NCBI GenBank assembly: GCA_043800535.1
Contig: JAZDMV010000002.1
Coordinates: 11,378 to 75,377, forward strand
DNA from: a bacterium
GTDB lineage: Bacteria > Patescibacteriota > Minisyncoccia > Portnoybacterales > GWB1-42-6
Reading direction: 5' to 3'
Length of the DNA: 64,000 nucleotides
Part shown: piece after piece, positions 3,287 through 59,530 of the stretch
How the letters are laid out: the number at the start of each line of letters is the position of its first letter
How positions within the stretch are numbered: the stretch's first letter is position 1
Notes under the pieces: generated by a model
What the model saw: the letters and a program-made list of their open reading frames with translations, nothing else
Database searches by the model: none
Told to the model about the DNA's origin: nothing
Made by a program: the position numbers and the translations under genes

Positions 3287-3351
3287 AAATGATGGATCCT
3301 CTGTCGCGCATCGAAAAATTTTGTCATAAAATCGCGATGGGCTAGACGTAT

Positions 3352-3482
3352 GAAAAATTGCCGAGCGACGAGTGAAACGAGAAGTTTACGAGGCAATTTT
3401 TAGTCGAGCGAATCTGATTTTATCAAAATTTTATCGCTGCGCGTGGTCTTTTGCTACTTTTCTGCCACCAGAAAAGTAGATA
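3352..3482 (+). repeat. intergenic repeat family D copy 2 with terminal hairpin gctacttttctgccaccagaaaagtag
   Basis: Near-identical core to 1882-2010. Confidence 0.6.
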
Positions 3483-3487
3483 AAAAT

Positions 3488-4498: not shown

Positions 4499-4942
4499 TT
4501 ACCTAATTATTTTTAAAATATATTTATCAACAATTTCTCCGCTGCAAGCATAAAAGAAAACAATGTCTACAACCCCTTCCTTTTTCGGTGTAATAATAGT
4601 GTAATTATTTTTATGGCATATACTCGATCTTTTATCTACAAAACTAATATCATAATAATCGCTTGTTTTGGCACCAACAGGACACCCCCCGGGTGCACCA
4701 TCTTCTGGAACACAAATATCTTCTTCGTCAGTTCTTACAATAATACTCTCGCCAATTTTAACTGTCATATTATTTTCAATCCTCTGAAGCTTTATATCGG
4801 TTAATCTAAAATAAATTTTCAAACCAAAAAAACCAATAATTAAAGCTATAATTATTACAAATAATGCTTTAAGTTTTTTACTTCTCCAAAAGCTTGTTTT
4901 TTGTGGATTATTTGGTTGGGGCGTTTCCATGGTTTTTGTCAT
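4499..4942 (-). CDS. hypothetical membrane-anchored protein
   Basis: Single N-terminal TM helix (LKALFVIIIALIIGFFGLKIYF). The ORF-track start at 4990 reads through a repeat element, so I place the start at MTKTMETPQ (4942). Confidence 0.45.
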   Translation of the reverse strand: MTKTMETPQPNNPQKTSFWRSKKLKALFVIIIALIIGFFGLKIYFRLTDIKLQRIENNMTVKIGESIIVRTDEEDICVPEDGAPGGCPVGAKTSDYYDISFVDKRSSICHKNNYTIITPKKEGVVDIVFFYACSGEIVDKYILKIIR

Positions 4943-5037
4943 TCCTGCCCGCGCTACGCCGAAAGGCTTCGGCGAGGCGAACAAAAGCAAAAATTCAGAT
5001 TGTTTTTCTTCTGGATTCCGGCTTTCGCCGGAATGAT
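4938..5037. repeat. palindromic repeat family B copy (gtcattcc...ccggaatga termini)
   Basis: Termini gtcattcctgcc ... ggattccggctttcgccggaatga resemble copies at 19321, 22861, 26531 and 13294. Confidence 0.5.
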
Positions 5038-7378: not shown

Positions 7379-7897
7379 TTACCAAGTGCTTCTGGCCGCT
7401 GCTGTTGAAACTTGCCAAGCCCCAGTTGGTCTAACGGGGTCATAAAAAGGATCTGTGGCTAAATACCCTGTCTCTGGCGTGCAATGAGCCAAAACTTTGT
7501 AGTCGACACCATTTGAATAATAAAGATAGCAGCAACCAGCGCCGTTGGCATTATGACCTTTTGGGTCAAGCGGCAGTTGCGCCATATACGCGGGCGCCAA
7601 ATTCGGAACATAGCCGTCGCTACCCGAAAGAGCGTGGCTTCCAAAACTATCGCATTCGCCCCACCACCCCGGCACAACCGGGTAGACGCCGCTAAAATCA
7701 TAATACATTTCCAAAGCCAGCTGAATTTGACTTAAATCCGTTTTACGCTTAGCGTCCCTCGCTTTTGCTCTGGCACTGCTAAGAGAAACCAACACAACGC
7801 CGGAAAGTAATCCTATAATCGCAATCACAACCAAAAGTTCCATCAAAGTGAACCCTTTTGTGCGGTTTTTAATTTTGATTCCAAGCCATCTTGACAT
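7379..7897 (-). CDS. type IV pilin-like protein
   Basis: [20 protein letters not shown] prepilin motif after a 15-aa leader. Confidence 0.75.
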   Translation of the reverse strand: MSRWLGIKIKNRTKGFTLMELLVVIAIIGLLSGVVLVSLSSARAKARDAKRKTDLSQIQLALEMYYDFSGVYPVVPGWWGECDSFGSHALSGSDGYVPNLAPAYMAQLPLDPKGHNANGAGCCYLYYSNGVDYKVLAHCTPETGYLATDPFYDPVRPTGAWQVSTAAARSTW

Positions 7898-8320: not shown

Positions 8321-8436
8321 TATTATTGTTATTCCTGCGGAAGCAGGAATCCAGGTTCTCCTATCTGCCTCCTGATGCTAATCTGGATTCTCGCTCCAAG
8401 CATGTCCTGCGTTTGATACAGGACTGAAATAACAAA

Positions 8437-11664: not shown

Positions 11665-12378
11665 CTATTGTCCATTCCATCCCTTCTTCTTCAGCCCATT
11701 TTCCGCCGCTTTTTGCTGGGCCTCCTGCTTGGAAGGCCCTTCGCCTTCGGCCACCAATTCTTCGTCCAGAAACACACCGACTTTAAAATGCTTGGAGTGG
11801 TCCGGTCCCCATTCGGCCATAACTTCATAACTTGGCGTCACGCCTACCCTTTCCTGCGACTCTTCCTGAAACTTGCTTTTGGCGTCTCGGTAGCTTCCCT
11901 GCTCCAATATCGTAGGCAGAAGGACTAAAACATTTTTATTCACAAACTCTGTTGCCTTATCCATCCCCTGGTCGTAATAAATCGCGCCGATCAACGCTTC
12001 AAGTGCGTTGGCCAAAATATAATTTCTGGCGCGTCCGTTATCTTTGGCCTCTCCGCGGCTAAGCATCACATGGCTGTTTAAGTCAAGCTCAAGAGCAATT
12101 TCGGCCAAGGTTTTTGCGTTAACCAGCGCCGCCCGCCAATTGGTCAGCTCGCCTTCAGGGTTTGGGTAATTGCGGTAAAGATATTCCGTCACCGCCAACT
12201 CCAGCACCGCGTCACCCAAAAATTCCAGCCGTTCATTTTGGCCGACGGCAAAATCTGGATTCTCGTTCAAGTATGAACGGTGCACTAAGGCCTGCTGAAG
12301 CAACTTCTCGTCGTTAAACTTGATACCGATCTTTTTCTCAAAACTTGCTAAGTCACTCATCTCTAAGTCAAAAATCAA
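11665..12378 (-). CDS. rnc: ribonuclease III
   Basis: ERLEFLGDAVLEL catalytic signature, C-terminal dsRBD. Confidence 0.85.
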   Translation of the reverse strand: MIFDLEMSDLASFEKKIGIKFNDEKLLQQALVHRSYLNENPDFAVGQNERLEFLGDAVLELAVTEYLYRNYPNPEGELTNWRAALVNAKTLAEIALELDLNSHVMLSRGEAKDNGRARNYILANALEALIGAIYYDQGMDKATEFVNKNVLVLLPTILEQGSYRDAKSKFQEESQERVGVTPSYEVMAEWGPDHSKHFKVGVFLDEELVAEGEGPSKQEAQQKAAENGLKKKGWNGQ

Positions 12379-12972: not shown

Positions 12973-13251
12973 TTATTTTACGCTAAGACTTTCCATGCTC
13001 GTTTCTTTTTTCGTTTCTTTCTCCTGCTCTGCCATCTCCTTTTCCTTGTCGCGCCGCTCTTTTTTGGTCAGTTTCTTCAACACATCAATAACTTCTTTTC
13101 CTTTAAAAGTTCCACAATTTAGGCAAGTCCGGTGCGGCAGAACGCTCTTCCCACACTTCGGGCACACGCCCAAGATCTGCGCTTTTAGAGCGTGGTGCGA
13201 ACGCCTTCTGTTCCTCCGCGATTTTGTATGTCTCTGTTTCGGTACCGGCAT
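12973..13251 (-). CDS. rpmF: 50S ribosomal protein L32 with Lys/Glu-rich C-terminal tail
   Basis: [23 protein letters not shown] plus CPKCG..C zinc ribbon. Confidence 0.8.
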
Positions 13252-13293: not shown

Positions 13294-13376
13294 GTGTCAT
13301 CCCGAGCCCCGTAACTGGACGAGGCAACCTTATTTCAGAATCTCGCTTCGGGACTCTAAAATAAGACTAGAATGAC
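13294..13376. repeat. palindromic repeat family B copy (gtcatcccgagc...ctagaatgac)
   Basis: Terminal inverted motifs resemble the family. Intergenic position. Confidence 0.4.
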
Positions 13377-13477
13377 TTTACTTCGCAGTATAGCAGACAA
13401 TTTTACTCCTGACAAGAGATGACAAAGCCCGCATAACCAAAAAGGCCAACGGGCTATTTTTTCTTACTGTCTTTTTG

Positions 13478-15218: not shown

Positions 15219-15342
15219 TTTAAAATTTAGTTTCGAGAAAATCGCCATCCAAAAATTTTGTTTTAAATTCAGGCCGAGGCGAGCGTAAAATTTGCGTGTT
15301 TATGCCTTTGGGCCCCGCAGCAGCGGGGTGCATAGCAAATTT

Positions 15343-15425
15343 AGTGAGACGAGGCCTAGAATTTATCAAAATTTTATGGCTGGCGAGAGCTTTTTGGCTA
15401 CTTTTTGTCGACACAAAAAGTAGCT
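15343..15425 (+). repeat. repeat family D copy 3 (partial) with hairpin gctactttttgtcgacacaaaaagtagc
   Basis: Matches the tail of copies 1 and 2. Confidence 0.55.
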
Positions 15426-15448
15426 TAATAAATAATGAAATTTACTCA

Positions 15449-19320: not shown

Positions 19321-19388
19321 TGTCATTCCGGCCTTGAGCCGGAATCCAGATCCTAATTTTCTGGATTCCCGCTTTCGCGTGAATGACA
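19321..19388. repeat. palindromic repeat family B copy in thrS 5' region
   Basis: tgtcattccggccttgagccggaatcc ... ctggattcccgctttcgcgtgaatgaca. Confidence 0.55.
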
Positions 19389-21671: not shown

Positions 21672-22850
21672 ATGAAATATTACATAATTACATATGGCTG
21701 TCAAATGAATGAAAGCGATTCTGAAAAGATCGTTGTTTTATTGCAGCGCCAGGGCCACAGACCCGCAAAATCAGAAGCTGACGCCAATTTGATCGTTCTT
21801 AACGCCTGTTCTGTGCGTCAGGCCGCCATGCATCGCGTCTACAGTAAAATAAATCAATATTCGGGTAAAAAGAAGGTAATTCTAGCCGGCTGCGTTTTGC
21901 AAAAAGACAAAAACGCGTTAAAGGAAAAAGTCAGCGAAATTTGGCATCCGGACAGCTATTTTGAATGCCCCTCAGTGTCATTGCGAAGCGCGCCGCCAGC
22001 TGGCGGCGCGCTGAAGCAATCCCGCACTAATACCTCCGTCCACGGGATTGCCACGCTCCCTCCGGTCGCTCGCAATGACGCGACGCCCGCCTATGTGCCC
22101 ATAATGACCGGCTGCAACAATTTTTGTTCTTATTGCGCCGTGCCTTACACGAGAGGACGGGAAAGATCACGGCCGGCGGACGAAATTATTGCCGAAGTAA
22201 AGGCGCTGGTAAAAAAAGGCCATAAAGAAATAATGCTGTTGGGACAAAACGTGAATTCGTATAAATCAAACAGCGTGTCATTGCGAGGAGCCACGTCTCC
22301 TGCGGGGCGACGCGGCGATCCCGACCGTTTACCGCCGTCCACGGGATTGCTTCGCTCCGCTCGCAATGACGTTAATTTTGCAGTTTTACTCAAAATCATC
22401 AACTCCCTCCCCGGCAATTTCCGTCTATCCTTTATGACCTCCCACCCCAAAGACATGTCGGACAAGCTTATTGCAACGATGGCCAAATGTGAAAAATTGG
22501 CAAAAAATCTGCACCTGCCAATTCAATCCGGCGACAATACAATTTTGCGCAAGATGAACCGACATTACACCACAAATCATTATCTGATACTGCTCAAAAA
22601 AATCCGCAAAGCGATTCCTGATATAAAAATTTCAACCGACATAATCGTCGGCTTCCCGGGCGAAACAAAAAAACAATTCCAAAGCACTGTCGCGCTGGCC
22701 AAAAAAGCCAAGTTTTCGGGCGCGTTTGTTGCCAAATATTCCCCGCGCCCCGGCACCGCCGCCGCCAAACTGAAAGACAATGTACCAGTTGAAGAAAAAA
22801 AACGACGTTGGCGGATTTTAGACACGTTGATTAATAAATTCGAGCATTAA
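21672..22850 (+). CDS. miaB: MiaB/RimO-family radical-SAM methylthiotransferase with two in-frame repeat-derived insertions
   Basis: MKYYIITYGCQMNESDSEKI MTTase N-domain, CNNFCSYCAVPYTRG radical-SAM cluster, TRAM end. Inserts SVSLRSAPPAGG... and SVSLRGATSPAGRRGD... are encoded by elements at 21975-22080 and 22275-22370. Confidence 0.8.
   Translation: MKYYIITYGCQMNESDSEKIVVLLQRQGHRPAKSEADANLIVLNACSVRQAAMHRVYSKINQYSGKKKVILAGCVLQKDKNALKEKVSEIWHPDSYFECPSVSLRSAPPAGGALKQSRTNTSVHGIATLPPVARNDATPAYVPIMTGCNNFCSYCAVPYTRGRERSRPADEIIAEVKALVKKGHKEIMLLGQNVNSYKSNSVSLRGATSPAGRRGDPDRLPPSTGLLRSARNDVNFAVLLKIINSLPGNFRLSFMTSHPKDMSDKLIATMAKCEKLAKNLHLPIQSGDNTILRKMNRHYTTNHYLILLKKIRKAIPDIKISTDIIVGFPGETKKQFQSTVALAKKAKFSGAFVAKYSPRPGTAAAKLKDNVPVEEKKRRWRILDTLINKFEH
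21975..22080. repeat. palindromic element family A copy 1, in-frame inside miaB (gtgtcattgcga...ctcgcaatgacg)
   Basis: Terminal inverted repeats. Shares ccgtccacgggattgc with copy 2. Confidence 0.7.
22275..22370. repeat. palindromic element family A copy 2, in-frame inside miaB
   Basis: gtgtcattgcgaggag ... gctcgcaatgacg. Confidence 0.7.
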
Positions 22851-22860
22851 CTAAAGTTTC

Positions 22861-22956
22861 TGTCATTCCGAGCGTGCGAGGAATCTCCCGCGTATGCGGG
22901 ACCCCGTTGCCGACATTCATCGGAAATCCTTCGGCGTAACGCGCCTCAGGATGACG
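22861..22956. repeat. palindromic repeat family B copy downstream of miaB
   Basis: tgtcattccgagcgtgcgaggaatctcccgcgtatgcggg ... caggatgacg. Confidence 0.55.
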
Positions 22957-23353: not shown

Positions 23354-24337
23354 ATGCTAGATAATAATTGTCAAGATAAAGATGCTCCAAAGCTAATCGT
23401 CGTTCTCGGCCCGACTGCTTCCGGCAAGTCGGATTTAGCTGTGGAAATCGCCCACAAATTCAATGGCGAGATTATTTCCGCTGATTCGCGGCAGGTTTAT
23501 CGCGGAATGGATATTGGGACCGGCAAAATTACAAAAAAAGAGATGCAAGGTGTTCCTCATTATCTGCTGGATGTCGCTGACCCAAAACGCCGCTTTACTG
23601 TCGCCCAATACAAAAAATTAGCGCTGGCCGCAATAAAAAAGATACAACGCAAAAATAAAATCCCGATTATCTGCGGCGGGACGGGGTTTTATATTCAGGC
23701 GCTAGTTGATAATATTTCTATCCCAGAAGTCAAGCCGGATTTGAAACTTCGCACGCGCCTGGAAAAAAAATCTGTCGGAGAACTATTCTCCGAGCTGAAG
23801 TGGCTTGACCCAAAACGCGCCAAAACAATAGACCCCAAAAATCCCCGCCGACTCATCCGCGCGCTTGAAATTATTTATAAAACCGGCAAACCTGTGCCGC
23901 CGTTAAATCCTCCCCGCCCCTCCCTAAAGGGAGGGAGTCCCCCTCCTTTAGGAGGGGCTAGGGGAGATTTTTCTACCCTCTTCATCGGCGTCAAAAAATC
24001 GCCGCATCAACTACGGCGATTGATTTATAAACGCCTGCTCAAACGATTGCGGCAAGGCATGATAGAAGAAGTCAAAAACTTGCGTAAATCTGGCATCTCC
24101 TGGAAACGGCTGGAAGACTTTGGCCTGGAATATCGATACACCGCTAAATATTTACAGAAAAAAACCCTTCGACAAGCTCAGGGTAAATTATACTATCAAG
24201 AAATGGTTTCGCGTCTCCAAAAAGAAATTGAGCATTACGCCAAAAGGCAGATGACGTGGTTCAAAAAAAATCCAAGAATAAAATGGATAGAAAGCGAAAC
24301 TCAAGCGCAAAAATTAGTAAAAAAATTCATAGAATAA
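23354..24337 (+). CDS. miaA: tRNA dimethylallyltransferase with in-frame palindromic insert
   Basis: IVVLGPTASGKSDLAVEIA P-loop; SADSRQVYRGMDIGTGK. Insert PPRPSLKGGSPPPLGGARGD is encoded by cccctccctaaagggaggg/ccccctcctttaggagggg (about 23910-23975). Confidence 0.8.
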   Translation: MLDNNCQDKDAPKLIVVLGPTASGKSDLAVEIAHKFNGEIISADSRQVYRGMDIGTGKITKKEMQGVPHYLLDVADPKRRFTVAQYKKLALAAIKKIQRKNKIPIICGGTGFYIQALVDNISIPEVKPDLKLRTRLEKKSVGELFSELKWLDPKRAKTIDPKNPRRLIRALEIIYKTGKPVPPLNPPRPSLKGGSPPPLGGARGDFSTLFIGVKKSPHQLRRLIYKRLLKRLRQGMIEEVKNLRKSGISWKRLEDFGLEYRYTAKYLQKKTLRQAQGKLYYQEMVSRLQKEIEHYAKRQMTWFKKNPRIKWIESETQAQKLVKKFIE

Positions 24338-25676: not shown

Positions 25677-27224
25677 CTATTTCAACCGCTTCTTCAAGAT
25701 TTCCTCAACCATCTGCGGATTGGCGCGGCCTTTGGTCGCCGCCATCACTTTGCCGATCAAAAACATCAGCGCTTTTTCTTTGCCGCCTTTAAACTCGGCC
25801 GCGGGCCCCGGGTTTTGAGAAATAGTTTCAGCCACCGCTTTTTCAAGTTCTTCCTCATCACTCACCTGCGCTATCCCCTTTTCTTCTATGACGTGCGACG
25901 GGTCAACACCTGTTTTAAACATTTCGGCTAAGACCGTCTGCGCGCCGCTTGAAGAAACAACGCCCTGCGCGGTCAGCTTTATAAATTCCGCAAAATTCTC
26001 GGCCGTAATTTTTAAATTTTCAAACGGCTGGCCTGATTGGGCAAGCAATTTCTGCAATTCCGTTATCAGATAATTTGCCGCCAGTTTCAGCGCTTTGACG
26101 CAGTCAATTTTTGGCTCGGCCGAGCATGCCCATTCTTTCAGTTCACTCGCCACCCGCTCAAAATAATCGCCCAGCGCTTTATTAACAACGAAAATTTCAA
26201 CGTCGCCATCTGGCAAATTATATTCTTCAACAAATCTTTTTTTACGACTAGCCGGCATTTCGGGCAAAGATGATAGTTCGGCAACAATCTCCGCAGTTTT
26301 TAATGGCGGCAAATCCGGCTCAGGAAAATAGCGATAATCATGCGCTTCTTCTTTGACTCGCTGGGAAACTGTCATCTGTTTTTCGTCAACCCATCCGCGC
26401 GTCTCCTGAATAATTTTTTCACCGGCTTCCAGGGCTTCGGCCTGCCGTTTTATTTCATAATCAATGCCCCGCTCAACCGCCCGGAAAGAATTCAAATTTT
26501 TTATTTCCACTTTAGTCCCTAAAGGCGCTCCGTCATTCTGAGGCAAAACCGAAGAATCTCCCAGCTTGTTTGGGATGAATCCCGCATTCGCGGGTGATTC
26601 CTCGCTACGCTCGGAATGACTTGTGGACGGTCGTAGACTAATATTCACCTCACACCTCATCTGGCCCTTTTCCATATCAGCGTCAGAAACCCCAAGATAC
26701 CTTAAAATAAGCTGAAGTTCCTGGCAGAATTTTTTGGCCTCTATGCCCGAACGTATATCCGGCTCTGTCACCAATTCCATCAGCGGCACGCCTGCGCGGT
26801 TCAAGTCAACCAAAGAATAATCAGTCCCTGCCGGATGCAACAATTTGCCCGTATCTTCTTCCAGATGTATTCTGCGAATTTTTATTTTACAGCCGTCAAT
26901 TTCCAGCCACCCGTTCTGCGAAAGCGGCTTGTCATACTGGCTTATCTGATAGCCCTTGGGCAAGTCTGGATAAAAATAGTTTTTGCGGTCAAATTTGGAA
27001 AATTCCGGAATTTCGCAGTTGAGCGCCCGCGCGGTCTGCAAGACCATTTTCACCGCTTCTTTGTTTGTCACGGGCAAACTGCCCGGCTGGCCTGTGCAGA
27101 CGGGGCAAATGTGGATATTGGGTTCGCCTTCCAAACCAAAACCATTCTCACATCCACAAAACATTTTTGTTTTGGTCTTAAGCTCAACATGAACCTCCAT
27201 TCCGATAACCGCTTCATATTTCAT
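25677..27224 (-). CDS. gatB: Asp/Glu-tRNA amidotransferase subunit B with in-frame repeat insert
   Basis: MKYEAVIGMEVHVELKT N-terminus. Insert RPSTSHSERSEESPANAGFIPNKLGDSSVLPQNDGAPL is encoded by the family B element at 26531-26630. Confidence 0.85.
   Translation of the reverse strand: MKYEAVIGMEVHVELKTKTKMFCGCENGFGLEGEPNIHICPVCTGQPGSLPVTNKEAVKMVLQTARALNCEIPEFSKFDRKNYFYPDLPKGYQISQYDKPLSQNGWLEIDGCKIKIRRIHLEEDTGKLLHPAGTDYSLVDLNRAGVPLMELVTEPDIRSGIEAKKFCQELQLILRYLGVSDADMEKGQMRCEVNISLRPSTSHSERSEESPANAGFIPNKLGDSSVLPQNDGAPLGTKVEIKNLNSFRAVERGIDYEIKRQAEALEAGEKIIQETRGWVDEKQMTVSQRVKEEAHDYRYFPEPDLPPLKTAEIVAELSSLPEMPASRKKRFVEEYNLPDGDVEIFVVNKALGDYFERVASELKEWACSAEPKIDCVKALKLAANYLITELQKLLAQSGQPFENLKITAENFAEFIKLTAQGVVSSSGAQTVLAEMFKTGVDPSHVIEEKGIAQVSDEEELEKAVAETISQNPGPAAEFKGGKEKALMFLIGKVMAATKGRANPQMVEEILKKRLK
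26531..26630. repeat. palindromic repeat family B copy, in-frame inside gatB (gtcattctgagg...ctcggaatgac)
   Basis: Terminal inverted repeats. Internal gaatcccgcattcgcgggtgattc hairpin. Confidence 0.65.
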
Positions 27225-27286
27225 AAAATCATAATAACACAATAATTCAACAGAAAAAAGAACCATCCATTGGATGGCTCTTTATA

Positions 27287-31068: not shown

Positions 31069-32172
31069 TTAAGATTCAGTCAAAATTTTATCAATTCTCG
31101 CCTTAATTTTATGCCCCTGACAATGTTTCAATATCCCAAAATATGACTGCAAGGTTTGACCAAAAGACGCTTCAGAGATCAGACCCGTCCGCAAACCTTG
31201 CCGCCTATTTATCATCTTCTTCAGTATTCTCTTTTTAGTTTTTGTCCGCAAAACCCGATAATACGGCAAAACTACATAGCCAAGAAAGTCAATCCCCTGA
31301 CGATACTTTCTGATTATTATTTTATCAGGATGTAAAGTTAATTTCAATCTTTCTTCAAGAAAATCGCTGATCAGCGGAATCAATCCGTTTAAATATTCTT
31401 CGTTTTCGCCCAAAATCACAAAATCATCGCAATAACGCAAATAGTATTTTTCTCTTAATCCGTGCTTAACAAATTGGTCAAGCTCGTTCAAATAGATATT
31501 GGCAAATAGCTGGCTGGTGACATTGCCAAGAGGCAAACCCTTGTTAGGCGATTTTTCAAAGCTTTTGATTATTGCTTCAATCAGCCATAAAATATTTTTC
31601 TCTTTGACTTTCTGCCTGACTAATTCCAACAAAATTTCATGATCAACTGAATCAAAAAACTTTCTAATATCGCATTTTAAAGCAAAAAGATCTTTTGTGT
31701 TATTTTGGCTTAATTTTCCGGCGAATTTTTCCAGTCGGCTGACTGCCCGATGTGTGCCCTTGCCCAAACGGCAAGAATATGAATCAAAGATAAAACTTTT
31801 ATCAAAAATTGGATACAAAACTCTAAATACGGCGTGGTGCAAAACTCTGTCGCGTACGCAAGCTTTGTGAATCCGCCTTGGCTTTGGGTCACATATTGAA
31901 AACGCGGTATAATGGGAGTGACAATAAGCTTTCGCTTTTAATTCATGATGGAGCTTGAATAAATTATCCTCTAAATTAAATTCAAATTCCTGAACGTCCG
32001 GTTTATTGCCTTTGCCTCGCTTAAATTCCCGCCAGGCCAAAAACAAATTTTCCAGCGAAATTATTTGCTCAAAAACTTTCCATCCTTCGGATGGTCGCCC
32101 GAAGGGCAATAACTTTTCACTTTTAACTTTAAACTCATGACTTATAACGCCCCCCCCCAGCGGGTTCAACAA
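31069..32172 (-). CDS. diversity-generating retroelement reverse transcriptase
   Basis: RT motifs: SICDPKPRRIHKACVRDRVLHHAV (motifs 1-2), LPLGNVTSQLFANIYLNELD (an SQ-type motif 4 that I recall as typical of DGR RTs), RYCDDFVILG (YxDD). Cognate TR/VR lie adjacent. The start may instead be a TTG about 60 nt downstream; a G9 tract lies at codons 6-8. Confidence 0.85.
   Translation of the reverse strand: MLNPLGGGVISHEFKVKSEKLLPFGRPSEGWKVFEQIISLENLFLAWREFKRGKGNKPDVQEFEFNLEDNLFKLHHELKAKAYCHSHYTAFSICDPKPRRIHKACVRDRVLHHAVFRVLYPIFDKSFIFDSYSCRLGKGTHRAVSRLEKFAGKLSQNNTKDLFALKCDIRKFFDSVDHEILLELVRQKVKEKNILWLIEAIIKSFEKSPNKGLPLGNVTSQLFANIYLNELDQFVKHGLREKYYLRYCDDFVILGENEEYLNGLIPLISDFLEERLKLTLHPDKIIIRKYRQGIDFLGYVVLPYYRVLRTKTKKRILKKMINRRQGLRTGLISEASFGQTLQSYFGILKHCQGHKIKARIDKILTES
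32150..32158. repeat. C9/G9 homopolymer at the RT 5' end / avd-RT divergent promoter
   Basis: acgc ccccccccc agcgg. The only run of this length I noticed in the window. Confidence 0.8.
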
Positions 32173-32188
32173 GTTTGAAGTCCCTGTT

Positions 32189-32506
32189 TTGCATAGAATT
32201 TTTGAGCTGTATAAATTATTTCACAAATGCCTGATATTATTCCCAAAACAAGAAAAATATACGCTGGGACAAAAAATAGAAAATACGATTTTGGAAACAC
32301 TTGAGCTAACCCTATCGGCAAGCTATTCTAATATCTACAAAAAGGAAATTCTAACAAAAGCAAATAATAAAGTTGACCTTTTGAAATATCTAATCCGGCT
32401 TTCCCACGAGACAGATTCTGTCAAAATCAAAAGTTGTCTGACGCTGGAAGAAATAATCATTGAAATCGGAAAAATGATTGGCGGCTGGCGGCGTTCTCTC
32501 AAATAA
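32189..32506 (+). CDS. avd: Avd-like accessory protein (four-helix-bundle family)
   Basis: 105 aa. LYKLFHKCLILFPKQEKYTLGQKIE and C-terminal EIGKMIGGWRRSLK resemble the FPK.EKY ... EIGKML.GLIKSLK pattern of PF05635/Avd proteins. Divergent from the RT, which is unusual. Confidence 0.65.
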   Translation: MHRIFELYKLFHKCLILFPKQEKYTLGQKIENTILETLELTLSASYSNIYKKEILTKANNKVDLLKYLIRLSHETDSVKIKSCLTLEEIIIEIGKMIGGWRRSLK

Positions 32507-32523
32507 AATTGGCTTTAACTTTG

Positions 32524-32554
32524 AAAAGAAGCCCCGTGTCTTACGGGGCTTCTT
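32524..32554. terminator. perfect hairpin gaagccccgtgtcttacggggcttc between avd and TR
   Basis: 9-bp stem. Terminator for avd. Confidence 0.5.
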
Positions 32555-32571
32555 TGACTATACTTAGCACT

Positions 32572-32691
32572 ACCGACAAACAAAAGACCGGAAGAATAGT
32601 TGTCGTTCGCGTTGCCCAGATTGCCCCTGTTGTCAAAGTTGAGCCTGTCATCATTGGCCTTGAAGTTAAGCGAATAGTCCGACGACTGTCA
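32572..32691 (-). repeat. DGR template repeat (TR), sense strand = minus
   Basis: 120 bp nearly identical to 32943-33062. Sense strand is Asn-codon rich: QSSDYSLNFKANDDRLNFDNRGNLGNANDNYSSGLLFVGS. Every mismatch to VR is at a TR adenine. Confidence 0.85.
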
Positions 32692-32886
32692 ATAATTTGT
32701 TCTTTCCCGCCCCAAGCCACCAGAAGAGCATAAACTGCGCTTCTTGTATTTTATTCGGTCCCGGCTGGACCATAGAAAAGGACAAGGAGTGCTATAAATA
32801 TATTCGGCGACCTTGATTTGTTAAAAACCAAGATACATTAGCCTACGAATTTATTATACCAAAAAAATAAAAAGGGCGTAACGTGA

Positions 32887-32916
32887 TACTCATCGTTACG
32901 CCCTTGCAAAGATTCA
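32887..32916. other. 10-bp-stem hairpin gggcgtaacg-N10-cgttacgccc about 25 bp downstream of VR
   Basis: Position matches the DGR hairpin/cruciform reported to promote mutagenic homing. Also serves as the target-gene terminator. Confidence 0.5.
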
Positions 32917-32935
32917 AAGATCAAGGGACAAAGAA

Positions 32936-33898
32936 TCAACTCCCGACAAACAAAAGACCGGAAGAATAGCTGCCGCTCGCGCCGCCCAGATTGCCCCTGC
33001 TGCCAAAGTAGAGCCCGCCATCATCGGCCACGAAGCAAAGCGAATAGTCCGACGACTGCCAACTTAAAGCCGATAAATCCAATCCTGGCGTGTACCAATC
33101 TCTGGCAAGGACATCTGGATACATCGCCAGTGCGATGGCCGTGTCAAAGCCGCCAGCCATCAGTAAAGATTCCGGAAGATGGAATAATTGTTCCCGGCTT
33201 GCCAGAACAGAAAACCCTTGCAAGGGGTTAGGGAAATAAATCGCGACTACATAGCTCTTTATCATATTAAAAACGAGTTTCTCATGCCGCGTTCCTTCCA
33301 CGATACCCACCTTGCCCTCCAGCTCGTTTTCCCGGTAACTATAAAACTTCCTGCCGGGAAATTGTTTCTCGAAAGAAAATTTAACGGCCGGCAGAAAAAT
33401 CCGTTCCAGGGCCCGACCATAGTCCTCAATGCTTTCCAGCTTCGGCAGGATAATCGGCAGATAAACGCCATTGAGTAAATTGACAATCTTTTTGTTGTCT
33501 TTAATTTGGCCAATCAGCTCGTTGGCTCTGCCTTCGAATTCAGCAACTGACATAAATAGGCCGGGCTTGAAAGCTTCCTGAAAATAGACAAGCCGATTTG
33601 CATAACCATCAATGGTATTCAAGCTCGGCTGGACAAGATAAAATTTCTTGTCCGGATCGCAAACCGCGTTTTTCAAGCCCTTTGCCGGAATTACGCGGCC
33701 GTTTTTGTCCGCGAGCTTCGAAACTCTTTCAATGAGTTTAACTTCAAGCTCGTCCCTCAAAAGTGCATCAAGCTTCTCTTCGTCGCCACCGCAAACCTTG
33801 CTTAAAATAGCGACAATCTGGCCCCCGGTTCGTCCTCTCAAAATTTCTAAAGAGCTTCCCATATCACACCTCCTGGTTTTGAGCTTTTTATTGCCCAA
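32936..33898 (-). CDS. DGR target protein (320 aa) with C-terminal variable region
   Basis: C-terminus ...WQSSDYSLCFVADDGGLYFGSRGNLGGASGSYSSGLLFVGS overlaps VR. No signal peptide seen. Fold unassigned. Confidence 0.7.
   Translation of the reverse strand: MGNKKLKTRRCDMGSSLEILRGRTGGQIVAILSKVCGGDEEKLDALLRDELEVKLIERVSKLADKNGRVIPAKGLKNAVCDPDKKFYLVQPSLNTIDGYANRLVYFQEAFKPGLFMSVAEFEGRANELIGQIKDNKKIVNLLNGVYLPIILPKLESIEDYGRALERIFLPAVKFSFEKQFPGRKFYSYRENELEGKVGIVEGTRHEKLVFNMIKSYVVAIYFPNPLQGFSVLASREQLFHLPESLLMAGGFDTAIALAMYPDVLARDWYTPGLDLSALSWQSSDYSLCFVADDGGLYFGSRGNLGGASGSYSSGLLFVGS
32943..33062 (-). repeat. DGR variable repeat (VR) encoding the last 40 codons of the target gene
   Basis: 16 mismatches to TR counted by eye, all at TR sense-strand A positions (A->G about 13, A->T about 3). 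The 3'-terminal about 27 nt are identical (IMH-like). Confidence 0.85.
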
Positions 33899-36329: not shown

Positions 36330-38459
36330 TTATCTTCTAATTCCCCACCCTTTCTCTTCCACTGCCTTAATAATACCCGTCATTAATTCGTTAACTTCTT
36401 TATCTGTTAAGTTCCGCTCGTCGGACTGAAATGTCAGACGGAAAGCAAAACTTTTTTTATTGTCAGCCACGCCTTCGTAAATATCAAAAAGGTCGGTATC
36501 TTGCAGAAGCTGCCCGCCGGCTGTTTCTATGACGTTCAGCACGCTTTCGGTCTTTGTGTCGTTATCTACCAGAACGGCCAGATCGCGCATGATGGCGGGA
36601 TATTTTGAAGGCGGCATATACATTCTTTCCTCCGAGGCGAGCCGCATTACTTTTGCAAAATCAAGCTCAAACGCAGCCACTTTTTCTTTTATTTCGCAGG
36701 ATGACAAAATATCTTGTTTAATTTCTCCGATCCAGCCGACTAATTCATCACCCGATTTAATTTCCGCCACGCGCGACTGATGCAAAAATTCCAGCCACCA
36801 CTGTTTTTGCGCGATGGCGTCATCAAACCATATATCGCCGATTCCCAATTTTGAAAATAAAATTTCGAGCCCGCCTTTGAGCTCCAGCAAGTTTTCTGTT
36901 GGCTTTGCGTTTTTATGACAGACAACCGCCCCGATCTTATTTTCCTCAAAACGCTCCCCTGCTTCTCTCCTGAAAACGTGGCCAATTTCAAAAAGCCGTA
37001 TATTATCAAAAAATTTAATATTTTCTCTTACGTTCTTCAAAAGATTCACAATTAAAGTCGGCCTCAAATATTTCTGGTCCTGTGAAAAAGGGTTTTTTAT
37101 TTCAATGTGGTTTGAAAAGTCAAATATTTTGCGGTCGCTTTCGGAAATAAACGAATAATTATAAACTTCATTCCAGCCGGCGCCAACCAAAATATCTTTT
37201 ATTTTATCTTCATAAATAAGTGACTCTTCGCGCAGGGCCGGGATTAAAATACCTCTTGGGGTATCAATCGGAATTTTGTCATAGCCGACGAGCCGTACCA
37301 CCTCTTCGGCTAGATCTTCCTGAGCCTGCAAGTCAAGCCGGCTTGTCGGGATTGAGGCTTCAATAAAGAGCTTACCGTCTTTTTTAATGATTTTGGATAA
37401 AATACCGAGTTCTTTTAATACTTCTGTCATCTTTTCGTCTTTAATATCTACACCCAGCAGCCCCTGCGCCCAGGCCACATCCATTAATACTTTTCGCAGT
37501 TTAGTTTTTTTCTCACACACATCAATCACTCCACTTGCGACTTTTCCCCCGGCAAATTCAACCATAAGAGACAAAGCACGCTCCAGCGCCTCAATTGTCA
37601 ATTCCGGATCAAGCCCGTTTTCAAAGCGCGTGGAAGCGTCTGTTTTTAAATTAAATGCTTTTCTTGTGCGGCGGATATTTGTCGGCTCAAAATTAGCGGA
37701 TTCAATTGCCACAATCTTTGTCTTTTCATCAATTTCCGGGCCTTCTCCTCCTTTTATGCCGGCGATGCCGATGGCGACTTTTTCATCCGCGATCACTAAA
37801 TTTTGCGGACTCAAATTGTATGATTTGCCTTCAAGCGTCGTAATTTTTTCGCCTTCATTTGCTCTGCGCACAATTATCTTTCCAACCGTGTCATTGCGAG
37901 GAGTCTGCGACGAAGTCTCCCTTTGGGAGATCTCCCGAAGGGAGACAATCCCGAGAACGGCTATGGCGCGAGGCGCCACCTTATCAACGTCAAAGGCATG
38001 CAGCGGCTGGCCGGTTTCCAGCATCACATAATTTGTGATATCAACAATATTTGAGATCGGCCGCAGACCGCATGCTTGCAGCCGCTCCTGGAACCACTTT
38101 GGCGACGGAGCAACCTTTATATCCGTTAAAACACGCATGCTGTAGCGCGGGCACAGGTCCGGCACCTGAACTTCAACCGAAATAAAATCTTTGGCTTTGA
38201 ATTTTTTGTCCTCGGACAGCTTCACTTTTGGGCCTATAAATCCGACACCTGAAATCGCGGCTAACTCCCTGGCAATTCCGATATGCGACATGCAATCATG
38301 CGCGCGGTTTGATAAAATCTTTATGTCCAGCACTGAATCCTGCCCGAATTTTTCGCAGCTTTCCACCTCAAACGCATGCATGGTCAAAAGCTCGACCATT
38401 TTTTCAGGCGCCAGAGATTTTTTTAGATATTCATTTAGCCAGTTGGCGGAAAATTTCAT
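36330..38459 (-). CDS. pheT: phenylalanine--tRNA ligase beta subunit with in-frame repeat insert
   Basis: 709 aa with B3/4, B5 and anticodon-binding regions. Insert VSLREISQRETSSQTPRNDT is encoded by the element at 37888-37975. Confidence 0.8.
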   Translation of the reverse strand: MKFSANWLNEYLKKSLAPEKMVELLTMHAFEVESCEKFGQDSVLDIKILSNRAHDCMSHIGIARELAAISGVGFIGPKVKLSEDKKFKAKDFISVEVQVPDLCPRYSMRVLTDIKVAPSPKWFQERLQACGLRPISNIVDITNYVMLETGQPLHAFDVDKVAPRAIAVLGIVSLREISQRETSSQTPRNDTVGKIIVRRANEGEKITTLEGKSYNLSPQNLVIADEKVAIGIAGIKGGEGPEIDEKTKIVAIESANFEPTNIRRTRKAFNLKTDASTRFENGLDPELTIEALERALSLMVEFAGGKVASGVIDVCEKKTKLRKVLMDVAWAQGLLGVDIKDEKMTEVLKELGILSKIIKKDGKLFIEASIPTSRLDLQAQEDLAEEVVRLVGYDKIPIDTPRGILIPALREESLIYEDKIKDILVGAGWNEVYNYSFISESDRKIFDFSNHIEIKNPFSQDQKYLRPTLIVNLLKNVRENIKFFDNIRLFEIGHVFRREAGERFEENKIGAVVCHKNAKPTENLLELKGGLEILFSKLGIGDIWFDDAIAQKQWWLEFLHQSRVAEIKSGDELVGWIGEIKQDILSSCEIKEKVAAFELDFAKVMRLASEERMYMPPSKYPAIMRDLAVLVDNDTKTESVLNVIETAGGQLLQDTDLFDIYEGVADNKKSFAFRLTFQSDERNLTDKEVNELMTGIIKAVEEKGWGIRR
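37888..37975. repeat. palindromic element family A copy 3 (partial), in-frame inside pheT
   Basis: gtgtcattgcgaggagtctgcgacgaagtctccctttgggagatctcccgaagggagacaatcc. Confidence 0.6.
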
Positions 38460-39477: not shown

Positions 39478-39603
39478 ATCATTGCGAGCAAAGCGAAACA
39501 ATCCCGTAGTTTTTGCTACATGCCACGGAATTGTCTCCCTTCGGGGGATCTCTCGAAGGGAGACCGCGTCGCCCCGATTAAGTCGGGACTCCTCGCAATG
39601 ACG
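39478..39603. repeat. palindromic element family A copy 4 (tcattgcgagcaaagcg...ctcctcgcaatgacg) upstream of pheS
   Basis: Complete terminal inverted repeats. Internal ggagaccgcg/gtctccc hairpin shared with copy 3. Confidence 0.65.
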
Positions 39604-50115: not shown

Positions 50116-50637
50116 TTATTGGTATATCCGATTAGTAATCGTGTCTTCAATCCACATTTCCGGCTGGGCCGTTGTTGAGGGATAAATATGCAGAACAACA
50201 GTCACCCGCGGCTGCTCACCCGCGCTGTTTCGAACATAAAACCTGCCATCAACTCTTATCTGGCTTGAGTTCAGCCGCGCGCTTGCCTGAACACTGCAGC
50301 TTGTTCCGATCTGACGGGTAATGGCTAGCCGTCCGTCCACCGTTGTAAAACAATAAACCACATCAACGTTATTTTGATTTTTTATTGATAAAACCGAGCT
50401 ATTGGCGCTGGTCGCGGTATAAATCTTGCTCATTCTTACTTCTTTGGCAATAACCTCCATGATGTAACGGGCGTCGTCTTGGAGATTCTGCGATAAAAAT
50501 CCCTGCCTCTGGTTTTTAAGCGCGGTTAGAAAAATAGACACTGCCATGGTCATCACGGTCAAAAATATAGCCAGCGCCACCAGCAGCTCAAGGAGGGTAA
50601 ACCCCCACACCATTGACTTGTGCCCGTGTCTTTGCAT
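50116..50637 (-). CDS. minor pilin / pseudopilin (prepilin-type)
   Basis: MQRHGHKSMVWGFTLLELLVALAIF. The ORF-track N-terminal 80 aa is a read-through of intergenic repeats. Confidence 0.7.
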   Translation of the reverse strand: MQRHGHKSMVWGFTLLELLVALAIFLTVMTMAVSIFLTALKNQRQGFLSQNLQDDARYIMEVIAKEVRMSKIYTATSANSSVLSIKNQNNVDVVYCFTTVDGRLAITRQIGTSCSVQASARLNSSQIRVDGRFYVRNSAGEQPRVTVVLHIYPSTTAQPEMWIEDTITNRIYQ

Positions 50638-50861
50638 AATACCCTTTGGGTTCCTACACCATTCATTTATTCGCTGACGCCTGTATGATTCTGGTGTGGG
50701 GGTAAATCCTTTTTTGTTTATAAAACCCAGTTTCATTTTTGAATTTACCCCCACACTTATTCCAGTGATATAGCTTGATGTTCTATCAGAGGGCGGCCAA
50801 GCCCTCTTCGCTCTCCGACAATGAAATTTAGATTGTGTCTCGTCGGAATAAGTGTGGAGGT
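50638..50861. promoter_or_regulatory. structured intergenic region with inverted repeat ggtgtgggggtaaat...atttacccccacac and palindrome agagggcggccaagccctct
   Basis: 16-nt arms separated by about 35 nt, upstream of the pseudopilin gene. Shares cccccacac with the tkt palindrome. Confidence 0.4.
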
Positions 50862-51332
50862 TTACGGCATCCAATTGTATAAATTATCTTCAACCACCGC
50901 CGAAAACTGGCCCAAAGTATCGGTCCATTTTACCTCCGAAACGACATCTATGCTGTCGCTTCCCGCATAAATATAAATAGTCCGGTAAAATTTTGTATCC
51001 GTGCCGGTGTTGTAATTATAAAACCCGTTGCTGTCTATTTTAAGCGGCAGGTTTGCGTATGCAAAGAGTGATGCGCTGTTGTATTGCGTAAGGTAAGTCC
51101 CGCCGGCCAATCCATAGTTCCAGGTCCGGCCCGCAACCCAGTTTGAATCCCTCATGCCGCGCACCATCTCTATCCCTTCTTGAGCCAGATGATTGGCCAT
51201 AAATTTTTCGTTGCTTAAACGGCCGGCCACAACAACATAACGCAGCAGCGACAGCATCGCGACCAGACCAACCATCGTTATGCCCACGGCAAAAATAACA
51301 TCAAGCAAGCTGAAGCCGGTTTTTTTATTCAT
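50862..51332 (-). CDS. minor pilin-like protein (prepilin N-terminus KTGFSLLDVIFAVGI)
   Basis: Start at MNKKTGFSLL abuts the upstream gene stop. Confidence 0.65.
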   Translation of the reverse strand: MNKKTGFSLLDVIFAVGITMVGLVAMLSLLRYVVVAGRLSNEKFMANHLAQEGIEMVRGMRDSNWVAGRTWNYGLAGGTYLTQYNSASLFAYANLPLKIDSNGFYNYNTGTDTKFYRTIYIYAGSDSIDVVSEVKWTDTLGQFSAVVEDNLYNWMP

Positions 51333-51333
51333 T

Positions 51334-51834
51334 TTACTGAATTTCAATGCTGCCATTTTTTATTACTTTTACTGTTTTTGTATTGCCGCCCTGCGTCAGA
51401 GTAAAATAAATTTCCTGCAACGCGGACGTATTGTTAAAACACGAACGCGGCTCGGGCGGCGCGAAAAAAGCAGACGTGCCCGCTGTAGCCATTGTCACGC
51501 CGGCCGGCAGAGCGATTGTCTTTACTGACAAGCGTTCTGATGTCGCCGGGCAGCCATTAACATCAGCCGCAGTGGTATTTAAAAAAAGGAGATAATTCGC
51601 GCTGTCCTGGATATAGATGCCATAACCGCCCAATGGCTGGCCCGAAGTAGTGGTCCCGGTCACTGCCATGCCCTGCGCCTGGCGCAGATCAACGGCCAGC
51701 TTCTGCGCCGCCTGCAGCAGCGAATAATTTTTTTGTCCCTGCCGGTAATTAGCCAGCGCTAAAGAAGTGATGACTATTATTATTGCCAGCACCACCAGCA
51801 TTTCAAAAATTGTAAACCCTCTGTTTCTTTTCAT
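51334..51834 (-). CDS. minor pilin-like protein (GspH/FimT-like; RGFTIFEMLVVLAIIIVIT)
   Basis: Prepilin motif. Start placed at MKRNRGFTIFE. Confidence 0.7.
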   Translation of the reverse strand: MKRNRGFTIFEMLVVLAIIIVITSLALANYRQGQKNYSLLQAAQKLAVDLRQAQGMAVTGTTTSGQPLGGYGIYIQDSANYLLFLNTTAADVNGCPATSERLSVKTIALPAGVTMATAGTSAFFAPPEPRSCFNNTSALQEIYFTLTQGGNTKTVKVIKNGSIEIQ

Positions 51835-51870
51835 TTTATGACTGCTAATACCCAAATTATCGTTTTGCCT

Positions 51871-59000: not shown

Positions 59001-59530
59001 TTTTTCTGCGGAGTTTCATTTTGAACGGTTAAATAGCAGGAACGATTATCTATTTCAACATATTGGCCCGTGCCCTCAAGCCCCACATCTGACAACTTTG
59101 CCACTGACAGCGTCAGGCCAGCGGAATTTCGCGCCAGAAGCCAAAGCTGATATACTCCCTTTAAAAATGGCGGCGGCGTGTATTCGATCTGCTTGGTCAC
59201 GGTCTCGTTTTCGTTCAGGTCAACTGATCCGTCATAAACCTGCTCGTCGATCAGAATGCGGGTCGTTGAGCTGACGCGGGAAAATAGCTGAACCGCATAT
59301 TTAATTCCTGACTGCGTTCCCTGGCCGTTCCCCAGCACAAACGAGATCTTAAAAGCAGGCGCGCCCGGATTTGAAATGATCTTGGCCTGATAAATGCCGA
59401 CCGTGGCCAGAAGAGTGGCGCTGCTGGTGGCGTTGGGCGGTTCCTGGGCAGAAACCGGCTTCAGGAAAATGGCAAATATCAGAAAAAACGATAAGCAAGC
59501 CAAGGAAGATAATACTGTTCTGTTTTTCAT
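56030..59530 (-). CDS. giant secreted surface protein paralog (1166 aa) with the same architecture
   Basis: N-domain about 35% identical to the 51871 gene. SWGSCSAACGGGTQSRTCTRTDC TSP1-like. C-terminal about 250 aa nearly identical to its neighbour, and the DNA is also near-identical. Confidence 0.8.
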   Translation of the reverse strand: MKNRTVLSSLACLSFFLIFAIFLKPVSAQEPPNATSSATLLATVGIYQAKIISNPGAPAFKISFVLGNGQGTQSGIKYAVQLFSRVSSTTRILIDEQVYDGSVDLNENETVTKQIEYTPPPFLKGVYQLWLLARNSAGLTLSVAKLSDVGLEGTGQYVEIDNRSCYLTVQNETPQKKYTRFQGVDISNEEKLIGTCEIINHFDKDIVVTPEFKTYYRTSFGNAVEDNKELQQEVSIKKGETKTISLILPKALAPQAYDARLSFVFQNRPVSNSIAFHYVLRGASATIQNLHLDKDYYLKGQNAQISFFWTPSADSFFGSRAGEGSDIGPVILDISIQNSSGEPCVEAAERQMTGQDSLTFTMPVIQNCKDPAVTVTLKQATSGNVLDKKTFTAKSQNVPGPEKTKFFLKEIYKYIIPGLAVLIGFIALMILRKKGKAASAPAAIILLFLLISGVVFLASVKTAQAFSQSAAFEIEEATFTIGLDNLSYCPSEAINMTASACGNYACENTVANAYLQVRAGTATQYQEILNGQDVSLDKCAYGNTSFTAESTPGTYNADFKGQVSLNNKTWSLLGSQYLRYTVLSPPTASITANGQAGSILVAAGTAATIAWNSTGATSCSVAPAGWTGTSGSQSTGALSSGTYTYTVTCNSRCGPASANINIYVESPIHSYYRCSNATCVQDDAKSVGGATYYTDDPTCANACVVVPKYKCSGSSCARDDVNGTFTDSNCNNTCVPLVSSWYRCNSSYTCEAVNCTGGDVACSFLGYKKTLVECQAACNAPPPPPEYFAQAYLRTKTRNQSWPCNYYGCYWGGWQDINSGTVPLQIDFMALGVSNLDWGSGWTYYFWCNRNISNPYQPSDWSASYAYDYETSFVRRAVALPIGVCDAKYSVPGNYLAQVRLVTAGYWGGYAEGVANFPVVVTPVGCTASCGSWGSCSAACGGGTQSRTCTRTDCSTYPETQVCNTQACTLSASLTANPASGLAPLSSNLTATVSGTAFGTTNYTFWKNCNSTCSTVQSCTTACGNYDAKYDGRPETSYSSTVSYASGGSYTPKVVVERGSAAPAQARTAVTVTNPVTYTLTVLKTGTGTGTVTSLDTKINCGGDCSEVYNSGNTTTLNAAAALGSTFVGWSGAGCSGTGSCIVTTDSSKTVTARFSAPVDWKEITP

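Follow-up and report, generated by a model that had tools for sequence, protein, structure and literature searches.

An in-frame palindromic element in gatB of a Patescibacteria bacterium, probably a member of the CGTC-tagged REP superfamily

We analyzed a 64,000-nucleotide stretch of Patescibacteria DNA (contig JAZDMV010000002.1 of assembly GCA_043800535.1, positions 11,378 to 75,377; hereafter the window), in which a palindromic element lies within the gatB gene. Apart from a diversity-generating retroelement (DGR) and an IS1595-like gene that is dead, the open reading frames (ORFs) of the window are housekeeping genes. GatB is encoded by the minus-strand ORF at 25677-27266 (NCBIfam NF004012, E = 5e-182), and the database protein P0001 is 100% identical to it. 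Because this identical protein has 515 amino acids (aa), the true start is most likely the MKYEAVIG at 27224, and the longer ORF start at 27266 is unlikely. A first-pass annotation, made from the sequence without database searches, had placed a 100-bp element with inverted termini at 26531-26630 and described it as inserted in gatB without a frameshift. The termini and the frame were as described. An 11-nt inverted repeat with one mismatch pairs 26532-26542 (GTCATTCTGAG) with 26610-26620 (CTCGGAATGAC), and the element lies inside an uninterrupted minus-strand ORF, where it reads roughly SHSERSEESPANAGFIPNKLGDSSVLPQND in the gatB frame (an example of a predicted tryptic peptide within the insert is SEESPANAGFIPNK). 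The repeat itself is shorter than had been annotated, as it covers 26531-26621, or ~90 nt.

The element consists of two inverted units around a spacer (Table 1). The left unit is made up of a CGTC tag (26531-34), an ATTCT arm (26535-39), a purine-rich interior of 13 nt (GAGGCAAAACCGA), the complementary AGAAT arm (26553-57) and a CTC tail. The right unit, read on the minus strand, has an AGTC tag, an ATTCC arm, the interior GAGCGTAGCGA, a GGAAT arm and a CAC tail. The stem-loops of the spacer are CCCA...TGGG at 26560-26574 and CCCGC ATTC GCGGG at 26581-26594. In the mRNA sense the element is predicted to fold with -40.9 kcal/mol (z = -4.8), and the DNA fold gives z = -4.6. Its closest relative is the copy at 22861-22956, with which it aligns along its whole length, including a complementary match over 26 nt (92%) to 22876-22901. 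At the gathering threshold, Rfam reported only three tRNAs in the window and no match for the element. A hammerhead or other ribozyme identity was also considered and was rejected, as the core motifs are absent from the sequence.

The size of the insert in the protein was obtained from an alignment with GatB of Aquifex aeolicus (PDB 3H0L chain B), in which residues 2-202 and 235-514 of the query align to 4-205 and 208-475. The intervening query residues 203-234, which are without counterpart, are 32 residues facing 2 in 3H0L_B, and the net addition to GatB is 30 residues. The ~37 aa previously attributed to the element is an overestimate, as the 38-residue peptide quoted for it is the entire loop. 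A comparison of GatB orthologues, proposed in the first-pass annotation as a check, supports an insertion. Among 115 close orthologues (all Parcubacteria or Portnoybacteria-like), the loop that N-I/V-S-L and G-T-K enclose is 6-8 residues long in 74 and at least 12 in 35, compared to 38 here. In an AlphaFold model built on 50 orthologues (mean predicted local distance difference test score, pLDDT, of 81), the insert sits between strands 189-199 and 239-244, which is a beta-hairpin turn, and residues 202-229 have pLDDT below 50 and are without secondary structure. The flanking strands carry invariant residues (R190, E192, N194, S196, K238, E240 and N243), and therefore only the hairpin turn can take extra residues. 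The insert is thus predicted to be a disordered surface loop on GatB, and its effect on GatB function is probably close to neutral.

The nearest other GatB (P0002, 85% identical) is encoded on a syntenic Joint Genome Institute contig, L121, which lacks the gatB element as well as two further elements that the window carries in a MiaB-like gene. As far as these sequences go, the comparison shows that the element entered or arose in gatB of this Parcubacteria lineage after its split from the closest sampled relative. Three other GatB genes carry in-frame dimers of subtypes other than the window gatB copy. On contig L122 (P0062, VIASEAKQS...LVPRND), a dimer with an 84-nt core starts one codon from the position in the window gene; on L123 (P0063, VIPSVSEES...QND), a dimer with a 78-nt core occupies the same loop position; and on L124 (P0089), a dimer with a 92-nt core lies at another site, in the helical domain. 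The L122 and L123 dimers at the GatB loop appear to be independent insertions. L121 itself has two in-frame dimers in miaA (13036-13146 and 13360-13445; 374 aa compared to 327 aa here), one of the GAG-interrupted type described below and one canonical CGTC-1/-4-type with the peptide VIPAKAGIQ...SRVKPGMT, and the window miaA is without them.

Several smaller observations concern the same proteins. Short expansions after NISLRE, containing ...IPRNDAE... or ...RGNDTRN..., are present in GatB orthologues P0041, P0043, P0047, P0032, P0050 and P0061. These look like relics of CGTC-type right ends (CGC/GGG AAT GAC), which suggests that expansions of the P0041 type are old insertions that have partly decayed. 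In the window, miaA (23354-24337) has an in-frame palindromic insert of its own at 23909-23965, with GC-rich hairpins CCCTCCCTAAAGGGAGGG and CCCCTCCTTTAGGAGGGG and the peptide PPRPSLKGGSPPPLGGARG, at a MiaA site shared with a CGTC-type dimer of L121. Peptides similar to this one, PLLRKGG...PLVKGG, fill the GatB loop in orthologues P0033 and P0030. The insert looks like a second repeat family colonizing protein loops.

The window contains at least 10 related copies, and 4 of about 10 are in frame in genes for tRNA-related enzymes (Table 1). The terminal motif GTCATTSYGAG, allowing up to one mismatch, occurs 12 times compared to a mean of 2.5 and a maximum of 6 in 100 shuffles, and a profile built from 184 units found the same GAG-type units in the window and no further ones. 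The other copies had been listed as intergenic, which was incorrect for two in-frame dimers in the MiaB-like gene and for a degenerate in-frame copy in pheT (one clear unit at 37889-37952, with a decayed partner unit). Of the related copies that had been proposed, those at 19321-19388, 22861-22956 and 4938-5037 are confirmed, and those at 13294-13376 and 8325-8430 are recognizable as relatives but degenerate. The unit upstream of thrS has the form TGTC-ATTCCGGC-CTTGA-GCCGGAAT-CCA ..., with an 8-bp stem, a 5-nt loop and a CCA tail, and would encode FLDSRFRVND.

Table 1. Coordinates of the gatB element, its parts and the related copies in the 64-kb window.
Feature	Position	Strand	Remarks
gatB coding sequence (host gene)	25677-27224	minus	515 aa from MKYEAVIG
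Whole palindromic element, inverted dimer of REP-like units with spacer	26531-26621	minus	~90 nt
Left unit	26531-26560	plus	also recovered by unit finder
Spacer, 33 nt	26561-26593	none	two small stem-loops
Right unit	26594-26621	minus	unit finder and nhmmer match at 26620-26596
GAG-type dimer, in frame in MiaB-like methylthiotransferase gene	21975-22081	plus	peptide SVSLRSAPPAGGALKQSRTNTSVHGIATLPPVARND; absent in L121
Second GAG-type dimer, in frame in the same MiaB-like gene	22275-22372	plus	peptide SVSLRGATSPAGRRGDPDRLPPSTGLLRSARND; absent in L121
Intergenic dimer, 11 nt past MiaB-like stop codon	22861-22956	none	inverted-repeat finding and alignment
Degenerate copy, in frame in pheT	~37884-37976	minus	peptide APRAIAVLGIVSLREISQRETSSQTPRNDTV
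Dimer directly upstream of pheS start codon (5' untranslated region)	39478-39603	none	inverted repeats and profile match
Canonical CGTC-1-type dimer, 13 nt upstream of thrS ATG	19321-19388	none	fold z = -7.8
Intergenic CGTC-1-type dimer	4938-5037	none	right unit canonical, left unit disrupted
Intergenic CGTC-1-type dimer	8325-8430	none	left ATTCCTGC-GGAA-GCAGGAAT-CCA, right degenerate
Degenerate intergenic GAG-type copy	13295-13376	none	profile match E = 0.006

All of these copies follow one plan: a unit opens with a C/TGTC tag and a 5-nt arm beginning with AT, and closes with the complementary arm and a 3-nt tail, with an interior between the arms. In the window, the stems are ATTCT/AGAAT and ATTCC/GGAAT in gatB and ATTGC, ATCCT or ATCCC in the others, whose tags are CGTC or TGTC and whose tails are CCC or CCA. 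Covariation was counted over the window and 124 loci (among the matches listed) by taking each arm in the context GTC-arm-GAG and asking for its own complement within 40 nt. An ATTGC arm was followed by GCAAT in 228/272 units, ATTCC by GGAAT in 29/37, ATTCT by AGAAT in 4/6 and ATCCT by AGGAT in 3/7, and cross-combinations of arms were rare. The ATTCT/AGAAT stem of the gatB left unit is therefore of a type seen compensated in this count. Elements with unlike ends (L007, L010, L018, L088 and the gatB copy) still have each half self-complementary. Since the arms covary and the unlike-ended elements keep self-complementary halves, each half is its own hairpin module.

A search of one genome per GTDB species with the pattern GTCATTSCGAG-N(60-90)-CTCGSAATGAC found at least 120 loci. 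The matches listed, to which all the counts from this search refer, come from Alpha-, Beta- and Gammaproteobacteria (including Bradyrhizobium, Rickettsiales/Tisiphia, Coxiellaceae and Legionellales), Desulfobacterota, Bacteroidota, Ignavibacteriota, Acidobacteriota, Planctomycetota, Chloroflexota, Clostridia/Oscillospiraceae, Gemmatimonadota, Zixibacteria, Margulisbacteria, Melainabacteria-like Caenarcanales and Patescibacteria (Parcubacteria and Berkelbacteria), such that near-identical motifs of the GAG-interrupted variant occur in over a dozen phyla. The copies have internal motifs in common (GAAGCAATCC and GGATTGCTTC), often with a mini-hairpin of the GCGAAGC type. In the 126 canonical copies, drawn from 120 genomes, the base at -1 is a pyrimidine in 118 (C in 75, T in 43), and that at +1 is a purine in 120. 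Target-site duplications were absent from 117/126 copies, near the shuffled control, and a search of 240 loci for recurrent neighbor genes found none among the 120 genome loci. Eight of the loci that carry canonical copies were searched against Rfam at E <= 1, and nothing was matched at the elements. High-GC hosts dominated the results of a metagenome scan with the gatB-type unit; with only 7 dimers in low-GC loci, none of them intragenic, the scan gives no frame statistics for Patescibacteria.

The element pattern also matches at least 120 IMG/VR contigs (L125-L244), many of which share a head-tail gene set like that of alphaproteobacterial gene-transfer-agent or HK97-type clusters. These "viral" contigs may be host chromosomal regions, and given this resemblance the matches are therefore uninformative on phage carriage. 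The idea that the small matched contigs were Microviridae was dropped after inspecting their gene sets.

The first-pass annotation had proposed checking whether intragenic copies are always a multiple of 3 bp, and they are not. In six intragenic copies the GTC...GAC core measures 89, 103, 94, 84, 78 and 92 nt, lengths that cover all classes modulo 3, as do those of the canonical copies (42/44/40 among 126) and of the B-type dimers from metagenomes (16/23/21). Because the lengths fall in all classes, frame compatibility is not built into the element. This points to selection acting after insertion, with only the net insertion keeping the frame. All three frames are represented at the left end (SHSE, SLR and VIAS/VIPS), and the right end is always read as ...AAT/GAT GAC or GAT (N-D or D-D), where one of the other two frames holds a conserved TGA. 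In all nine intragenic copies examined (9/9), the frame is kept and there are no stops, which argues that they are translated rather than excised; this in-frame, stop-free state would arise because frame-breaking insertions in essential genes are lost. The gatB insert is likely transcribed and translated with its gene, as it amounts to 30 codons net with no stop in the frame used. An ORF-spanning test on the loci of the genome scan was non-discriminating, as high-GC hosts give long chance ORFs.

We compared these elements to known repeat families, starting with the CGTC-tagged repetitive extragenic palindromes (REPs), families CGTC-1 to -4 (Di Nocera, De Gregorio and Rocco, 2013, BMC Genomics 14:522; PMC3733652). 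As described there, these have an unpaired CGTC tag (TGTC or CCTC also occur), 8-9 bp stems starting with A-T pairs, 4-5 nt loops and 3-nt CCA tails, and are mostly head-to-head dimers with 20-100 bp spacers that are often structured, often located by ORF ends. They are also found in frame within genes of several species, adding 20-30 aa, including in tRNA synthetase genes; enrichment of REPs at tRNA-related genes is noted, and no dedicated transposase is described (PMC3733652). In Rickettsia conorii, CGTC-1 equals Rickettsia palindromic element (RPE) 6 and CGTC-4 equals RPE-4, and the supplement lists peptides such as SFLRKQES...FLDSRFRRND, VIPAKAGI and WIPAFVRMT (PMC3733652). The same source reports CGTC repeats from five phyla, with Patescibacteria outside its 2013 data set, and notes that units with bulges may have been missed by its own search (PMC3733652).

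The window copies agree with this description in many respects. The gatB element has a CGTC left tag, stems starting with A-T, tails of 3 nt (CTC and CAC, where the consensus is CCA), an inverted dimer arrangement that matches the R. conorii CGTC-1 dimers (judged from the R. conorii peptides) and a 33-nt structured spacer, and the window copies are likewise near ORF ends or in frame within genes, with no linked transposase. The copies upstream of thrS and at 4938 and 8325 fit CGTC-1 exactly (8-bp stem, 4-5 nt loop and CCA tail). The gatB, MiaB-like, pheT and pheS copies differ, as their perfect stem has only 5 bp and is followed by a GAG...GA(A) purine interruption; 10-31 nt separate the arms, and the interruption often encloses a GCGAAGC-like mini-hairpin. 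This GAG variant stands apart from the four published families as given in the text, Table 1 and supplements of the paper, and the supplements showed no sign of ATTGCGAG-type units (PMC3733652). The host phylum also differs, and the variant occurs in many phyla beyond the five that the paper reports. A literal literature search for GTCATTGCGAG returned unrelated primers only, and a search for Patescibacteria or Parcubacteria combined with miniature transposable elements with inverted repeats (MITEs) or palindromic elements found nothing relevant.

Three further systems are similar in part. RPEs were reportedly described by Ogata and colleagues in 2000 and 2002. Like the elements here, they are palindromes that lie in frame within conserved housekeeping genes, occur in a reduced genome, are tolerated in loops and vary among relatives, although in another host phylum. 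RPE-1, the best studied, is ~100-150 bp and unrelated in sequence to the gatB element, which is of another unit subtype and is not known to correspond to a named RPE. The FLDSRFRVND of the thrS-upstream copy is nearly the FLDSRFRRND of R. conorii, and by the literature equivalence of RPE-6 and CGTC-1 this copy would be RPE-6-like. A scan with NCBIfam RPE domains gave no match for the insert peptides, but a genuine RPE-6 control peptide was not matched either. REPINs and their RAYT transposases (Bertels and Rainey, 2011; GTAG REPs) share the inverted hairpin doublets forming one long hairpin, the non-autonomous and multi-copy state, the unpaired tag beside a hairpin, presumably recognized by a single-strand DNA enzyme, and the absence of target duplications. 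However, the tag here is CGTC/TGTC rather than GTAG, there is no RAYT/Y1 gene in the window, and REPINs are typically lineage-specific in sequence whereas the GAG variant is near-identical across phyla. The QMITEs of Coxiella burnetii (Wachter et al, 2018; PMC5896051) are also small palindromes, sometimes in frame and adding residues, but they are species-restricted and described as derived from insertion sequences (ISs), while the CGTC family is without target duplications or a parent IS.

Overall, we consider the gatB element to be a non-autonomous palindromic repeat of the CGTC-tagged REP superfamily, selfish, translated and tolerated, with its frame preserved by selection (probability roughly 0.8). 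Compared with the 2013 description, it is ordinary in kind; what is new is the host group and the unit variant, not a new kind of element. In the proposed mechanism, a repeat copy would enter gatB at the hairpin turn and be transcribed and translated with the gene, and purifying selection would remove frame-breaking insertions, such that the in-frame state need not reflect the design of the element. The mRNA hairpin of about -41 kcal/mol would have to be unwound by ribosomes, and a regulatory effect is only possible. The C/TGTC tag beside a hairpin, together with the lack of target duplications, suggests that a trans-acting enzyme might cut and join a single-stranded hairpin during mobilization, and GTAG REPs with their RAYT would be the analogy for an HUH/Y1-like enzyme of this kind; alternatively, host replication and repair functions might be responsible. 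We know of no mobilizing enzyme for the CGTC-tagged family, and Pfam scans of the ORFs in the 64-kb window found no Y1/HUH or intact DDE transposase.

Some results weigh against this assignment. The gatB units have 5-bp stems and interiors of 11-13 nt, compared to 8-9 bp and 4-5 nt in the published families; one of the tags reads AGTC where C/TGTC is expected, and neither tail (CTC and CAC) has the consensus CCA. No empty-site allele of the window gatB was found in the metagenome scan, and for this reason the placement of the junctions and the choice between insertion and loss as the direction of change rely on orthologues with 74-85% identity. That three independent insertions fall within one codon of each other could also stem from a target preference not yet recognized, or from gene conversion replacing an older insert. 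Finally, we infer translation of the gatB insert from frame conservation alone.

The alternatives mostly concern how the repeat came to be there and what becomes of it. A classical MITE, a deletion derivative of an IS with a DDE transposase that moves by cut-and-paste via its terminal inverted repeats, would account for the 11-nt inverted termini, the small size and the many dispersed copies, and an IS1595-like transposase remnant does lie in the window (62542-63215). This remnant is frameshifted and its surroundings are without GTCATT ends, though, and the genome-scan copies have neither target duplications nor a recurrent neighbor. In addition, each half folds alone with covarying stems, which is REP-like rather than a plain terminal inverted repeat, and we consider a MITE origin quite unlikely. 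Accordingly, the proposal that palindrome families A and B of the window are one superfamily of miniature inverted-repeat elements stands as to the superfamily (CGTC-tagged REPs in inverted dimers) but not as to classical MITEs, given the lack of target duplications and a parent IS. It is also unlikely, if a little less so, that the insert has been co-opted, either as a new interaction surface of GatB or as an mRNA hairpin tuning translation, folding or mRNA stability. Insertions do recur at the same GatB loop in several lineages, a position 12-13 nt upstream of a start codon is common among the elements (thrS and pheS), and the targets are enriched for tRNA-related genes (gatB, miaB-like, miaA and pheT). 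Yet the insert is absent in the closest relative, the loop is predicted to be disordered and its sequence is not conserved among orthologues, differing subtypes and unrelated low-complexity sequences fill it, and the enrichment could mirror the gene content of a 64-kb housekeeping region.

Removal of the element before the mature protein, by intron-like excision, translational bypass or intein-like excision, would leave GatB undecorated. The termini do pair, joining the flanks in the -41 kcal/mol hairpin, and RNase III is encoded nearby (11665-12378). We regard removal as very improbable considering that all nine intragenic copies examined are in frame and stop-free, a constraint that would be needless if they were excised, as the cores cover all classes modulo 3 and one frame per strand has a conserved TGA. 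There is also no match to an Rfam family, intron or ribozyme, 30 aa is far too short for an intein, and the 2013 paper cites reports that proteins with RPE-1 inserts are expressed in vivo (PMC3733652). Least probable of all, with hardly any weight in our assessment, is an ancestral or locally evolved loop that is palindromic by chance, or an assembly artefact. The exact GatB is found on one contig only, but the 26-nt match at 92% with the copy at 22876-22901 and the whole-length alignment, the same unit grammar in about 10 window copies and at least 120 loci elsewhere, and analogous inserts on independent contigs from other samples all speak against it.

A broader proposal is speculative, and we consider it doubtful though not negligible: the GAG-interrupted unit (C/TGTC-ATTSC-GAG...GAA-GSAAT-CC) might be a distinct class of hairpin repeat spread across bacteria. 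Its near-identical motifs in over a dozen phyla, among them Patescibacteria with tiny genomes and no transposase in view, could then reflect movement by a universal host function or an undiscovered single-stranded DNA enzyme. In Patescibacteria, which have little intergenic space, such units may be a large contributor of new surface loops to essential proteins related to translation.

Other features of the window are noted here for completeness. In the DGR (31069-33898), the reverse transcriptase is encoded on the minus strand at 31069-32172 (RVT_1, E = 7e-24), the template repeat lies at 32569-32692, and the target ORF (32936-33898) carries the variable repeat (32939-33062) at its 3' end; 26/34 mismatches between the repeats are at template adenines (A to G in 17, A to T in 9). 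The IS1595-like remnant has Zn_ribbon_IS1595 in a 152-aa ORF (62757-63215) and its DDE part in another frame (62542-62748). A conserved intergenic block of ~150 nt, which is not a CGTC unit, occurs at 1860-2032, 3333-3487 and 15225-15440, adjoining gene starts (upstream of two minus-strand genes and ahead of dnaE); two of the copies share a 46-nt segment at 96% identity, and the block includes a hairpin, AAAAAGTAGC...GCTACTTTTT. Two adjacent large ORFs (51871-55896, 1341 aa, and 56030-59530, 1166 aa) share 300 nt at 82% identity and adjoin pilin-like genes with N-terminal methylation motifs (50116-51855; also 447-935 and 7379-7897). Together these are probably a type IV pilus or surface apparatus.

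These results extend selfish palindromes inside essential genes, a phenomenon of the Rickettsia type, to the candidate phyla radiation. The conservation of unit motifs across phyla is striking, given that no mobilizing enzyme is known, but the question it raises is not new. For annotators and structural modelers, there is reason for caution, as odd inserts of 20-35 residues in Patescibacteria housekeeping proteins are often repeat-derived. The single GatB loop, independently struck in several lineages, provides a testable example of loop growth by repeat insertion.

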